Shown here: positions 3,316 through 16,037 of the stretch, piece after piece
Position numbering within the stretch: the stretch's first letter is position 1
Layout: the number at the start of each line of letters is the position of its first letter
Sequence record: MZ170040.1
DNA: 64,000 nt
Origin: Escherichia phage vB_EcoM_FJ1
Strand: one strand, 5' to 3'
Position numbers and translations under genes: made by a program
Notes under the pieces: generated by a model
The model's input: only the letters and a program-made list of their open reading frames with translations
What the model was told of the DNA's origin: nothing
Databases searched by the model: none

Positions 3316-3785
3316 TCAGCCTTATATTCAATAACAGGACATACTTTAGCTTTACGAGCTTTTAAAAATTCGACGATAATCGATTTCTTAGGTTGAATAG
3401 GAGGTAAACCTTTATACGCCCTATCAATATTTTCTACGTGTAAAGCATAATCCTTTTTCCATTTATAATCTTTATATTTTTCACGCAGTTGTGCAGGAAT
3501 AACAAATGAACCGATAATAAGTAAAACAAGCAAAATGGCAAGTATAAATGCTGATGGAATAAGAGTCCATAAACTACCAAAAATAAGCCATTTCTGCATG
3601 ATTTCTGCGCAGATAATAGTTAGACCTACGAGTATAGTACATCCGAAAAAAGAAACGAAAAATGTAGGAATAACAATAGACCAAAAATACGCGCACAGTG
3701 TCTTAGGTCGTTGCCATTCATCGTTAAACAATTTGAATAATTTATAGTGCCAAGAGTTTTCATTAATAATCATAATTATAATCAT
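3312..3785 (-). CDS. multi-pass membrane protein (157 aa)
   Basis: Three to four hydrophobic segments; ATGA coupling on both sides. Confidence 0.7.
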   Translation of the reverse strand: MIIIMIINENSWHYKLFKLFNDEWQRPKTLCAYFWSIVIPTFFVSFFGCTILVGLTIICAEIMQKWLIFGSLWTLIPSAFILAILLVLLIIGSFVIPAQLREKYKDYKWKKDYALHVENIDRAYKGLPPIQPKKSIIVEFLKARKAKVCPVIEYKAE

Positions 3786-4303
3786 CCTTTCATTGAAGGC
3801 GTAACGGTTGTTAAATACTTAATCATAGCTTCAGCTTCTGATTTTGATAATGAAATTTCTCCATTGTTTTGACGAATAGAAATAAAATCCGGATGACGGT
3901 CACCACCGGCTTTTAAAACACACATATAAGTATCAGTTTCATCTTCAATATTTGAAATGATTGAAGCAGTTCCACACGAATGTGGTTTTTGATAAATCAA
4001 TACAGCTTTTCTTCCACCATTTGACTGTTCATAAACTTTTAATACATCAAACAAATCACTTCTTTTATCAATAGCTAAAATGTTGTTTTCATCTTCAATG
4101 TTAAATCCTTCGGATACTTCATAAAGTGTCACCCATAAATCACCTATATCGATAGTAGCATTTTCCTTTCCATGACTTTCAAGAGCATGACAAATTTTCT
4201 TGATTTCGTCATAACTCATTTTAATAATATCATCTCCTTGACTAAGAAAGATGTCATTTTTAAATTCAACACGAATTAAACCGCTTCCACTTGAAATAAA
4301 CAT
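3782..4303 (-). CDS. hypothetical protein, paralog of 4310..4852
   Basis: 173 aa; shares GFNIE(D/S)E core and KYL..V.P(S/T)M C-terminus with neighbour. Confidence 0.75.
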   Translation of the reverse strand: MFISSGSGLIRVEFKNDIFLSQGDDIIKMSYDEIKKICHALESHGKENATIDIGDLWVTLYEVSEGFNIEDENNILAIDKRSDLFDVLKVYEQSNGGRKAVLIYQKPHSCGTASIISNIEDETDTYMCVLKAGGDRHPDFISIRQNNGEISLSKSEAEAMIKYLTTVTPSMKG

Positions 4304-4309
4304 ATTTCC

Positions 4310-4852
4310 TCACTTTGAAATCATAGTTGGAATGACAGAATCAAGATAAGTCTTTAACGCAATAGCTTCGTCTTTGGTAAATGTGACAATATGCGCTCGA
4401 AAATCATCAATTTGACGAATAGTTAAGACATCTCCATCTTCATAACATTTTGATACATTTAAAACAGTTTCATCATTCTGATCGCACTGATCGCAAGCGT
4501 TAGTAATAATAGCATTGCAATTTTTAAGCCATTTTAAACTATGTTTTCTTTCATTAGAATAATAAAAATATTTAATGTAAGTTATAAAATTATCCCAATT
4601 ATTAATTGATAAGCATATTGACTCGCTTTCAATGTTAAATCCTGGGCATAAAGAATAGAAATGAATTTTATGCTCATCATTAATGCTTACAATTTTATCA
4701 GTGTAAGGTTTTTCAATTTGGGTTAAATGAATAATTTCGCTAGGCGTAAAATATAGCATATCGTCTTCTTGCGTCAAACGATACATATTATTTACTTTTT
4801 CTATAGCCAATTCACCAAAAAATGAACTAACTTCTAATACTAATCGTTTCAT
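4310..4852 (-). CDS. hypothetical protein, paralog of 3782..4303
   Basis: 180 aa; AAGGA SD; tandem duplicate of downstream gene. Confidence 0.75.
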   Translation of the reverse strand: MKRLVLEVSSFFGELAIEKVNNMYRLTQEDDMLYFTPSEIIHLTQIEKPYTDKIVSINDEHKIHFYSLCPGFNIESESICLSINNWDNFITYIKYFYYSNERKHSLKWLKNCNAIITNACDQCDQNDETVLNVSKCYEDGDVLTIRQIDDFRAHIVTFTKDEAIALKTYLDSVIPTMISK

Positions 4853-13228: not shown

Positions 13229-14197
<969 letters not shown>

Positions 14198-14216
<19 letters not shown>

Positions 14217-14686
14217 TCGGTGATAAAATTATTTAAATTTTGAGTATATTTCTTTTCATCAAAAATCTTTTGCTGCCTACGTAAACGCCATGGCATTTCA
14301 ATGAACGTGTACCATATCCCAGATAATATTGCTGCTGTAAAAATATTAACAAGTATGGTTAAAATAATCCAATCTCCCGTTCTGTCTACTGGACTTTCTC
14401 CAAAGAAGCAAAATACAAATGATGTCACAGGAAAACTAATAATATACCACAGAATCATAATCTTATCTGTGAACCAATCAGTGTTCGTTAATTTAGCGCG
14501 ACCATTATGAATACACACGAATTTATCATCTGTTGCAGTAGATGGCTTAACTGGTTGATATCCCATTCTAAACTCCCTAATCAGCAAATTTTTCATATCT
14601 TCGGAACAGCCATTCCAGTCAACTCTATCAACTGAAATGCCATCATCCCCATCATCTAAATCATACCAGCGAGTTTTTAAAATCAT
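14198..14686 (-). CDS. membrane protein, member of a 4-gene paralogous family
   Basis: 162 aa; two TM segments; C-terminal FITECRKLK motif shared with neighbours. Confidence 0.65.
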
Positions 14687-15045
14687 TTGATTTTCCTACA
14701 ATCATTCACGAATTCTTTCATTGATTCATTTTCAATATAAGACATGTAGTTATTATATTCTTTTAATTGTATTTTGTAATCCTTTTTTCTTTGCCAATTT
14801 ATTTTAAAATTATCATAATGAAAATATAAAATAATACCAAAGAATGAAAATAATGAAATTGCTATAGTATAATGAAGTTCACTCCAAACTTCTGTTATAT
14901 TTACTGTGCCGTCGATGTTTAAAATAAGACAGTCAATTAACAATCCAAAAAGACTACCCGCAAGAGCTGCAGCCAACGCCACAGCAAAAATTAAAAATGA
15001 CTCAGAAAACGAATATTTGACTTTATTTAGTTTTGGCTTTTGCAT
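14683..15045 (-). CDS. membrane protein, paralogous family
   Basis: 120 aa; two TM segments; C-terminal EFVNDCRKIK. Confidence 0.65.
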   Translation of the reverse strand: MQKPKLNKVKYSFSESFLIFAVALAAALAGSLFGLLIDCLILNIDGTVNITEVWSELHYTIAISLFSFFGIILYFHYDNFKINWQRKKDYKIQLKEYNNYMSYIENESMKEFVNDCRKIK

Positions 15046-15419
15046 CGTGATTCCTTAACAAATTTCATAATTTCATCAAATTCATACGCGGCAAGTTTAA
15101 GCTGATGTTCCTTTTTAATCTTTTTACACTGTGCTTTCCAATCACGTACACGTTTACGATAATGTCTTCCTTGATACCAATATCCTATCCAATTTACAGG
15201 TACTAATAAAAGTGGAACTATTAATGGAAGAATTAGCATTAACACAAGTATTTCGCCAGAATCAATATCAGTCATAACATCTAAAACACCTCCAATAATC
15301 AATAGAATTACAAATGATATGAGTATAACAGGACCTATTAACACATCAGTAGAAATTATCTGACGCTTTAATTCATACTTTAAGGGTTTACTTGGAAGAT
15401 ACATTGATGGCTTTGACAT
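15027..15419 (-). CDS. membrane protein, paralogous family
   Basis: Trimmed from TTG to ATG (MSKPSMYL...); two TM segments; C-terminal KFVKESRCK. Confidence 0.6.
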   Translation of the reverse strand: MSKPSMYLPSKPLKYELKRQIISTDVLIGPVILISFVILLIIGGVLDVMTDIDSGEILVLMLILPLIVPLLLVPVNWIGYWYQGRHYRKRVRDWKAQCKKIKKEHQLKLAAYEFDEIMKFVKESRCKSQN

Positions 15420-15996
15420 ATTCTCTACATTCCTTAACAAATTTTTCTAATAATAAATCGCTTTCAAAATTGGGATTTTCTACGAATTTATCAAAAAGAT
15501 CATCAACAATATTCAAGATATTTCTTTTACTAAGAATACGTTTATTTTCATGTTTCGTTTCAGAATCAACTATAAGAGTAAAGAAATATTTCTTTCCCTG
15601 AAATTTTACCGTAGTATCAATATAGAATAAATTTGACTTTTGTAAATTACGTTTAAACCATGCGTCACTTAAACTATAAACACCGAGATAATCAAAATCG
15701 TCGTTTAAATAACATACTGTCCATTCAGGAGAAATGAAATCAGTAAATTCAACATCAAAATCACACGTCAATGAATGAATTGATTCAATACTGTTAATAA
15801 GTATTCCAGGACGTATTAAAGACTTTTTACCTCTGGAAAATCTTCCAGAAAGACTTTCATCAGTTTCATATGAAGAACCCCAATAATAATTACGTCCTTC
15901 TGCCATACGTTTAAGAGCATTTAGTAATTGGTCTGGAACATCAACTTGTCGTTGGAATTCTTCAAACATTGAATTGAAATCACTTTGCATTTTCAT
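15388..15996 (-). CDS. hypothetical protein sharing C-terminal motif with the membrane-protein family
   Basis: 202 aa; no TM; C-terminal KFVKECREYVK. Confidence 0.65.
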   Translation of the reverse strand: MKMQSDFNSMFEEFQRQVDVPDQLLNALKRMAEGRNYYWGSSYETDESLSGRFSRGKKSLIRPGILINSIESIHSLTCDFDVEFTDFISPEWTVCYLNDDFDYLGVYSLSDAWFKRNLQKSNLFYIDTTVKFQGKKYFFTLIVDSETKHENKRILSKRNILNIVDDLFDKFVENPNFESDLLLEKFVKECREYVKAINVSSK

Positions 15997-16037
15997 TCCT
16001 ATTTACTCCAAGTAATAGGGGCCGAAGCCCCTTATCA

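Follow-up and report, generated by a model that had tools for sequence, protein, structure and literature searches.

A shared C-terminal tail that doubles as ribosome-binding site in the e.5-e.4-e.3-e.2 gene string of a T4-like phage

T4 is the best-studied large lytic phage, and about half of its genes, including e.2–e.6, are without known function. In phage genes that are translationally coupled by ATGA-type overlaps, the Shine–Dalgarno (SD) sequence of the downstream gene lies in the last codons of the upstream gene. On a larger scale, the hyperplastic regions of T4-like genomes shuffle at repeated motifs termed PeSLs (Comeau, Arbiol & Krisch 2014, PMC4122927), and T4 joins DNA at homologies of a few bases (PMC8262927). 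Here we analysed 64,000 nucleotides (nt) of Escherichia phage vB_EcoM_FJ1 (sequence record MZ170040.1; this whole stretch is referred to as the window), in which four consecutive, overlapping genes, the homologues of T4 e.5, e.4, e.3 and e.2, encode proteins that end in a common peptide tail. The shared tail is a real, previously unremarked feature of known, uncharacterised T4 accessory genes. We found no description of the tail, of its overlap with ribosome-binding sites (RBSs) or of the paralogy of e.3 and e.4 in records or literature, and searches by gene name gave unrelated papers.

The window comes from a Tequatrovirus (T4-like) genome; over the 3 kb around the tails it is 95–97% identical to many T4-type phages of Escherichia, Shigella and Yersinia. 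Its minus-strand open reading frames (ORFs) follow the order of the T4 reference (denV, e, nudE, e.2, e.3, e.4, e.5, e.6), with e.6, e.5, e.4, e.3, e.2, nudE and e syntenic on one strand. The region is thus a T4-type early-gene string of overlapping genes, e.5-e.4-e.3-e.2-nudE. All four ORFs lie on the minus strand at exactly the coordinates of the initial annotation. The e.5 homologue (15388..15996; phrog_2607), the first gene after a hairpin that separates it from e.6, encodes a soluble protein of 202 amino acids (aa) and ends in KFVKECREYVKAINVSSK. It is followed by e.4 (15027..15419; phrog_2604), a predicted 130-aa inner-membrane protein with two transmembrane (TM) helices that ends in KFVKESRCKSQN and starts at the ATG annotated in T4, and by e.3 (14683..15045; phrog_2330), a predicted 120-aa inner-membrane protein, again with two TM helices, ending in EFVNDCRKIK. 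The e.2 protein (14198..14686; phrog_2203; 162 aa) begins with a cytoplasmic N-domain of 75 aa, followed by two TM helices and by a C-terminal segment of 38 aa with the end FITECRKLK. Overlaps measure 32 nt between e.5 and e.4, 19 nt between e.4 and e.3, and 4 nt (ATGA) both between e.3 and e.2 and between e.2 and nudE.

By tblastn, the e.2, e.3, e.4 and e.5 proteins are 90–100% identical to their counterparts in T4 and many Tequatrovirus genomes. The T4 orthologues are NP_049738–NP_049741, and the matching families are PHROGs 2203 (e.2, E=3.7e-79), 2330 (e.3, 3.5e-59), 2604 (e.4, 9.9e-71) and 2607 (e.5, 4.7e-109). T4 has the same gene order and the same overlaps, and its e.2, e.3 and e.4 are likewise annotated 'predicted membrane protein'. 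However, a frameshift leaves only 102 aa of e.2 in the T4 reference, whereas the window carries the intact 162-aa form. The truncation stems from a one-base difference in an A-run, AAAAATCC in the T4 reference versus AAAAAATCC in other phages (2153-2461, 1992-2152). The 3′ part of e.2 is still intact in another frame there, including the FITECRKLK tail and the ATGA overlap with nudE.

All four proteins terminate in F-[VI]-x-[ED]-[CS]-R, their C-termini reading as first annotated. On the minus strand, the e.5 tail FVKECRE occupies 15421..15441 (TTT GTT AAG GAA TGT AGA GAA) and the e.4 tail FVKESRC 15042..15062 (TTT GTT AAG GAA TCA CGA TGC). The e.3 tail FVNDCRK lies at 14692..14712 (TTC GTG AAT GAT TGT AGG AAA, followed by ATC AAA TGA) and the e.2 tail FITECRK at 14207..14227 (TTT ATC ACC GAA TGC AGG AAA, followed by TTA AAA TGA). 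The common module covers some 10–15 residues with which a predicted amphipathic helix ends. It reads (L/M)-x-x-F-[IV]-x-[ED]-C-[RK]-[KE], with F-V-K-E-[SI]-R-C as its e.4 variant. An AlphaFold2 model of e.4, built on a 31-sequence alignment (pLDDT 67), has helices at residues 24–48, 54–108 and 111–128 and places the motif inside the last of these with moderate confidence (pLDDT about 55–72). In such a helix the conserved L/M at position –3, F, I/V and C would share one face, joined in e.5 by Y and V. The e.4 model as a whole confirms no more than a helical hairpin followed by C-terminal helices. For e.5, AlphaFold2 without an alignment gave an unusable model (pLDDT 38.7).

Four short C-termini might resemble each other by chance, all the more as the motif is short and the regular expression was set after the motif had been seen. 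However, a scan of the window and 100 kb of T4, together some 164 kb of T4-type DNA with 793 ORFs of 30 aa or more, found the strict pattern F[VI].[ED]C[RK] three times, at the C-termini of e.2, e.3 and e.5 and nowhere else, with an expectation of 2e-5 per tail. In an unbiased test that makes no use of the pattern, the final 20 residues of 88 ORFs were scored against each other (local BLOSUM62); e.2/e.3 ranked first of 3828 pairs, e.2/e.5 6th, e.3/e.5 8th and e.4/e.5 12th, which puts four of the six pairs within the top 12. The motif is moreover kept in four genera. The C-terminal similarity first noticed in the sequence is therefore significant by both pattern scan and tail ranking, and chance resemblance is refuted, with next to no probability left to it. 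Along the window the motif is present at four of 53 closely spaced or overlapping junctions and absent from the other 49. Two degenerate patterns run against IMG/VR found tail DNA only in the genes e.2, e.3, e.5 and gp236 (the last described below) of T4-like genomes, besides short non-coding noise. Part of this noise was a short repeated element of giant-virus metagenome contigs (IMG/VR GVMAG) that translates to ...DFI[KE]ECIY*; it lies in very short ORFs throughout and has no relation to the phage genes.

Relatives from Mosigvirus, Gaprivervirus and Dhakavirus retain both the reading frames and the motif. The Dhakavirus e.2 proteins, 31–46% identical overall, end in FIEECRK, encoded by TTT ATT GAG GAA TGY CGT AAA. 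Mosigvirus e.3 (38% identical) ends in FIKECRK with Arg encoded by AGA, Gaprivervirus and Dhakavirus e.3 (about 20% identical) end in FIKECKS, and Mosigvirus e.5 ends in FIMECREYVK. In Dhakavirus the position of e.5 is taken by gp236, a soluble protein of 178–184 aa that ends in FIAECREYAK with a CGT-encoded Arg. No similarity between gp236 and e.5 was detected outside the tail (blastp E=0.53; hhalign E=0.32 without the tail). The e.4 tail varies from FVKESRCK in the window to FVKEIRCK in Mosigvirus and FIKEIRN in Gaprivervirus VR7. Across homologues, the Arg of the tail is encoded by AGA, AGG, CGT or CGA. Where the window, T4 and T2 differ at motif positions, the changes are synonymous (GAA/GAG, TTC/TTT, TGT/TGC, ATC/ATT), and within Tequatrovirus only the x position changes residue (N/I/S). 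The resemblance between the Dhakavirus e.2 and e.3 tails reaches about 15 residues (TKKNTLNSFIEECRK versus TKRNDLETFIKECKS). Since the motif persists in diverged homologues with changed codons, the tail is, judging from these comparisons, kept by selection on its amino acids across four Tevenvirinae genera.

In the same three genera, e.3 is followed by two to three tandem small soluble genes, all of which end in G-x-W-[VI]-[SA]-S-S-x-x-C. These are g131–g133 in KAW3E185 (1867-2661), gp142 and gp141 in VR7 (3984-4565), and gp234 and gp233 in Bp7 (2183-2764), with a stop codon and then TAAGGAA. They look like a tandem paralogue family with a C-terminal motif of its own, one that is absent from Tequatrovirus and from the window.

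The tail codons have a second role that the initial annotation missed. They usually also supply the SD sequence of the gene that follows and overlaps; by its sequence, the stretch is therefore dual-coding, for a peptide motif and for a ribosome-binding site. We examined 14 junctions from four genera for the position of the motif and for the best match to the anti-SD sequence. The motif begins 17–26 nt (once 40 nt) 5′ of the following start codon, and the best anti-SD match falls inside it in 12 of the 14 junctions, one further junction having a weak match at the same position. In nine junctions this match falls on motif codons 3–4 (K/E-E) and reads AAGGAA, GAGGAA or AAGGAG. Three Tequatrovirus junctions (e.3>e.2, e.2>nudE and e.3>nudE of T2) have lost the SD at codons 3–4 (AAT GAT, ACC GAA) and use AGGAAA at codons 6–7 (R-K); with the SD at this position, in Tequatrovirus e.2 and e.3, two added codons (I/L-K) bring back a spacing of 6–7 nt. 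In the window, e.4 finds its best anti-SD match in the AAGGAA of the e.5 tail, and its ATG (15419) lies one base past the motif. AAGGAA in the e.4 tail is the SD of e.3, whose ATG sits within the codons CGA TGC. The AGGAAA of the e.3 tail serves e.2 in the same way, and that of the e.2 tail serves nudE. Folding of ten junction RNAs revealed neither a conserved structure nor one of unusual stability (z from –0.8 to +1.6).

This arrangement raises the possibility that the tails are alike only through encoding a strong T4-type RBS (AAGGAA or AGGAAA plus an A/U-rich spacer), with a functionless peptide as by-product. The SD positions just given agree with such an origin, as do the identities K-E = AAG GAA and R-K = AGG AAA, the shift of tail length together with SD position, and junction RNAs that are unstructured like typical initiation regions. 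However, the 49 other overlapping or abutting junctions of the window have SDs without any such peptide. The SD does not encode F, I/V or C, which persist through synonymous changes, and Arg is kept with the non-SD codons CGT and CGA. In Bp7 gp236 the SD lies outside the motif, 15 nt further downstream, with the FIAECREYAK peptide unchanged, and the Mosigvirus e.5 junction keeps M-E-C-R-E with a weak SD. The SD accounts for K-E and R-K; it does not account for F, I/V, C or the CGT-encoded Arg, nor for the motif-free junctions. The codon table of the junctions largely refutes a pure by-product of translation initiation, which we consider very improbable. The locus can also be set beside ordinary ATGA-type coupling. 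There the downstream SD likewise lies in the upstream gene's last codons (overlaps here are 4–32 nt), but the ordinary coupled junctions of this genome impose no conserved peptide, whereas the tail peptide is conserved beyond what the SD needs.

The four genes were initially taken for one paralogous family that arose by tandem amplification. To compare them, family alignments were made from close Tequatrovirus relatives plus Mosigvirus (KAW3E185, phiC120), Gaprivervirus (VR7) and Dhakavirus (Bp7, VR5, dhaeg), and the resulting profiles were compared with hhalign. The divergent genera were found by tblastn on phage genomes; protein homology searches with e.2, e.3 and e.4 returned only close Tequatrovirus relatives. 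The profiles of e.3 and e.4 match with 90.7% probability and E=1.3e-6 in local mode, and with 89% and E=2.5e-7 over 113 collinear columns in global mode. After removal of the tail an N-terminal match (M-x-K-P...) remains at E=3.7e-4, and e.3 weakly matches the e.4 family phrog_2604 over its full length (E=0.0087). Because the hhalign match lies well beyond the best E-values of reversed profiles (1.1e-3) and of seven further small proteins of T4, among them several membrane proteins (4.5e-3), we accept e.3 and e.4 as very probably true paralogues.

Three other pairs aligned over no more than their last 11–22 columns, with E=2.5e-5 for e.2/e.3 (18 columns), 2.5e-4 for e.2/e.5 and 1e-3 for e.3/e.5. 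Once the tail was trimmed, all pairs but e.3/e.4 fell to an E of 0.09 or worse, and hhalign did not detect e.2/e.4 or e.4/e.5 at all. The e.5 protein is an ORFan: an exhaustive HMMER search of 1.84e9 representatives gave six matches, consisting of Tequatrovirus and Mosigvirus fragments and one spurious repeat protein. Nor do the four proteins have one architecture, e.2, e.3 and e.4 being two-TM proteins and e.5 soluble. As matches other than e.3/e.4 drop to noise without the motif, four-gene paralogy is not demonstrated. The proposed family stands for e.3 and e.4, whereas the similarity of e.2 and e.5 is confined to the tail; in the same way, tandem amplification holds for e.3/e.4, but a four-gene family so made is not demonstrable.

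One could still suppose that all four genes, or at least the three for membrane proteins, go back to a single gene amplified in tandem, and that diversifying selection has since left nothing but the C-terminus recognisable. Besides the paralogy of e.3 and e.4, this would explain why e.2 past its N-domain has the same architecture (N-in, two TM helices, acidic loop, Trp/basic juxtamembrane stretch, helix, tail), why a natural e.4N::e.2C chimera, seen in five contigs, is fused in register inside TM1, and why the hairpins are the fastest-evolving parts. However, no profile similarity remains between e.2 and e.3, between e.2 and e.4 or with e.5 when the tail is taken away. The e.5 protein, at 202 aa and soluble, is unrelated in composition and predicted secondary structure, and e.2 and e.4 fall into separate precomputed Pfam families, with e.3 in none. 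We regard whole-gene paralogy as unlikely, although e.2 could be an ancient paralogue of e.3 and e.4.

Within e.4, an internal stretch at 15114-15143 (aa 93–102), DWKAQCKKIK, resembles the ends of e.3 and e.2. Since the e.2–e.4 alignment stops at this stretch, the last 28 residues of e.4 may be a later extension with a second, e.5-like tail.

Comparing the presence of e.2, e.3, e.4 and e.5 shows that copy number differs between T4-like phages, as had been anticipated. In T2-type phages e.3 is directly followed by nudE. Here e.2 is exactly absent in frame, and e.3 ends in CRKLK as e.2 does. The deletion crossover lies within a 9-bp repeat common to the two tails, the left copy being TGTAGGAAA in the e.3 tail and the right copy TGCAGGAAA in the e.2 tail. 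Roughly a tenth of Tequatrovirus records are without e.2. In other genera, phiC120 has no annotated e.3, Gaprivervirus VR7 no annotated e.5 at the locus and Dhakavirus Bp7 no annotated e.4 at the locus, and in Dhakavirus VR5 and dhaeg e.2 has another neighbourhood, one gene upstream of nudE and not adjoining e.3. UFV05 and UFV11 carry an in-frame e.4N::e.2C fusion at a 6-bp microhomology, TCCTGT, inside TM1. The UFV11 chimera (2414-2734; P0143) joins the first 31 aa of e.4 to the last 75 aa of e.2 in a 106-aa two-TM protein and is a single gene in place of e.4, e.3 and e.2. The e.5/e.4 and e.4/e.3 junctions have 16 identical bases (AAATTTGTTAAGGAAT) and ATGnnAAAGCC in common. Tequatrovirus e.2 and e.3 share the derived ending AGG AAA WTH AAA TGA, and its absence from other genera suggests exchange between the two tails in Tequatrovirus.

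The tails are reminiscent of PeSL cassettes. Like these, they are short, recur where genes meet in a hyperplastic region, and fall on the break-points of indels that distinguish related phages, one event having been mapped to the tails. However, PeSL cassettes are non-coding and consist of an early promoter and a terminator, whereas the tails lie inside coding sequence and bring an RBS in place of a promoter. The tail repeats, 9–16 bp long, are without stem-loop and, unlike PeSLs, give in-frame junctions. Promoter-like sites were not enriched (18 versus 15.5±4.4 expected). With neither promoter nor stem-loop, the tails are not PeSLs, but by analogy they may have a small in-frame role comparable to them.

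Tail and RBS could then be mainly a joint for recombination and expression, from which newcomer genes inherit the tail, with the peptide tolerated rather than needed. Such a joint would fit the T2-type crossover in TGCAGGAAA and the frequency of e.2 loss, the bases shared by the e.5/e.4 and e.4/e.3 junctions, the apparent tail exchange between e.2 and e.3, and the known shuffling of the hyperplastic region at short repeated motifs (PMC4122927). However, a single natural event maps to the tail, and UFV11 uses an unrelated microhomology in TM1. Tolerated peptides would not stay identical at 20–40% protein identity with synonymous turnover, and the IMG/VR scans place tail DNA on no family beyond e.2, e.3, e.5 and gp236. 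A joint with a dispensable peptide is thus quite improbable to us.

Kyte-Doolittle hydropathy (19-aa window) confirmed the two predicted TM helices in each of e.2, e.3 and e.4, as initially annotated, and found no TM segment in e.5. The helices span aa 76–94 and 106–124 of e.2 (nt 14405-14461 and 14315-14371), aa 19–37 and 57–75 of e.3 (nt 14935-14991 and 14821-14877), and aa 31–49 and 57–75 of e.4 (nt 15273-15329 and 15195-15251). The loops between the helices are acidic and lack K/R, and the termini are rich in K/R; this pattern is consistent with an N-in/C-in topology with both termini cytoplasmic. Conservation within Tequatrovirus is lowest in the TM1-loop-TM2 hairpins, which have a mean pairwise identity of 74–86% versus 92–94% for the cytoplasmic C-domains. 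Loop indels occur in e.3, and the e.4 allele P0132 has 38% identity in the hairpin and 91% in the cytoplasmic C-domain. This variability would agree with diversifying pressure on an envelope-exposed part; it is explained just as simply by relaxed constraint on the TM segments.

We favour a reading in which the four genes share a tail module without demonstrated whole-gene ancestry, a module that is selected as a peptide, bears the SD, forms a recombination joint and would act in docking. Taken as a whole, this reading seems to us somewhat probable. Its descriptive parts, namely a real motif, peptide-level conservation, SD overlap, paralogy of e.3 and e.4, and tail-mediated loss of e.2, are each held with high confidence. 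In the functional part, the string would encode one soluble protein (e.5) and three two-TM inner-membrane proteins, with the tail as a common cytoplasmic docking or assembly helix. Through this helix, e.5 and the membrane proteins may bind to one another, or to a partner common to them all, on the inner membrane face, and the fast-evolving hairpins might give target specificity in the envelope. This assignment of docking and specificity is tentative and, in our estimate, rather doubtful.

Several observations weigh against the favoured reading. Four of the seven motif residues (K-E, R-K) are explicable by the SD alone, so that the purely peptide-level signal is limited to F, I/V, C and those R encoded by CGT or CGA. 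The e.4 tail is degenerate: hhalign does not detect e.4 with either e.2 or e.5, and Gaprivervirus e.4 is without the Cys. The docking or assembly role is inferred from conservation, a shared cytoplasmic location and a hydrophobic stripe (L/M, F, I/V, C). In the supplement of the CRISPRi-ART knock-down study of T4 (PMC11879866), entries for e.2–e.6 give the function as unknown, and all the guides shown there are scored 'Not Fit'. That no homology of e.2 with e.3/e.4 was detected beyond the tail speaks only weakly against an ancient paralogy, because the family alignments are shallow (Neff, a measure of alignment depth, about 2–2.6).

A bolder possibility is that the tail is a portable 'address tag plus plug', where the peptide recruits otherwise unrelated proteins and the DNA is an RBS-bearing in-frame joint. 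The soluble protein and the three membrane-embedded ones would be led to a single cytoplasmic partner or a common inner-membrane complex. Genes could be inserted into or lost from the coupled string, with a newcomer gaining coupled translation and the address in one step. We consider this quite improbable as well; if true, it would be the coding-sequence counterpart of the non-coding PeSL shuffling cassettes.

Database searches were in line with the uncharacterised status of these genes. No Pfam or NCBIfam match above threshold was obtained for e.2–e.6, nor any PADLOC defence-family match at an E of 0.1 or better, and sequence searches of the PDB with e.5 and e.2 found no relative. Several homologues of e.3, e.4 and e.6 carry GenBank names such as 'sulfurtransferase', 'host specificity protein', 'DNA primase' and 'phosphoserine phosphatase'. 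As no Pfam or NCBIfam match supports them, these names look like propagated annotation errors. Superinfection exclusion or immunity, or inhibition of membrane-associated defence effectors, had initially been proposed as functions; these proposals find no direct support here and stay speculative. T4 Imm and Sp, and other small T4 membrane proteins, are likewise small early-expressed envelope proteins, and Imm also has two TM helices; a further shared point is that the region is non-essential in the laboratory. However, hhalign gave no relationship to T4 Imm, Sp, Imm.1, Ac, rIII, PseT.3 or gp55.8 (probability at most 7.8%; at most 2.9% for Imm and Sp), and both Imm and Sp are without the tail motif. 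The main texts of the CRISPRi-ART and HIDEN-SEQ studies contain no mention of e.2–e.6, which are listed in the CRISPRi-ART supplement alone.

A peptide kept on four adjacent proteins in four genera provides a concrete handle that can be mutated, transplanted or used as bait. At the DNA level, 21 bases that serve both as a peptide motif and as an RBS are a clean natural case of overlapping constraints, complete with a compensating shift of SD and tail length, and annotation and selection analyses should allow for such dual coding. The tail-to-tail loss of e.2 in T2-type phages is an example of how in-frame gene loss inside a coupled string can leave downstream expression unbroken. The current understanding of phage biology is unchanged by these findings unless a tail-dependent interaction is found.

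The string is bounded by two further features. Its last translationally coupled gene is nudE (13761..14201, minus strand), which encodes a Nudix hydrolase (Pfam NUDIX, E=5e-13). Its probable start is the ATG at 14201 (MKTLS...), 6–7 nt past AGGAAA, the same start that is used in the T2 annotation. Upstream, a GGGGC-UUCG-GCCCC hairpin (16017..16032, minus strand) between e.6 and e.5 forms the boundary of the overlapping e.5–nudE string. This stable tetraloop hairpin is an annotated terminator in phages Lutter and KAW3E185, and no T-run follows it on the coding (minus) strand. Elsewhere in the window, two adjacent minus-strand ORFs of 173 and 180 aa (3782-4303 and 4310-4852) have alike C-termini, KYLTTVTPSMKG and YLDSVIPTMISK, and rank 4th among the 3828 tail pairs; they are probably another pair of paralogues.

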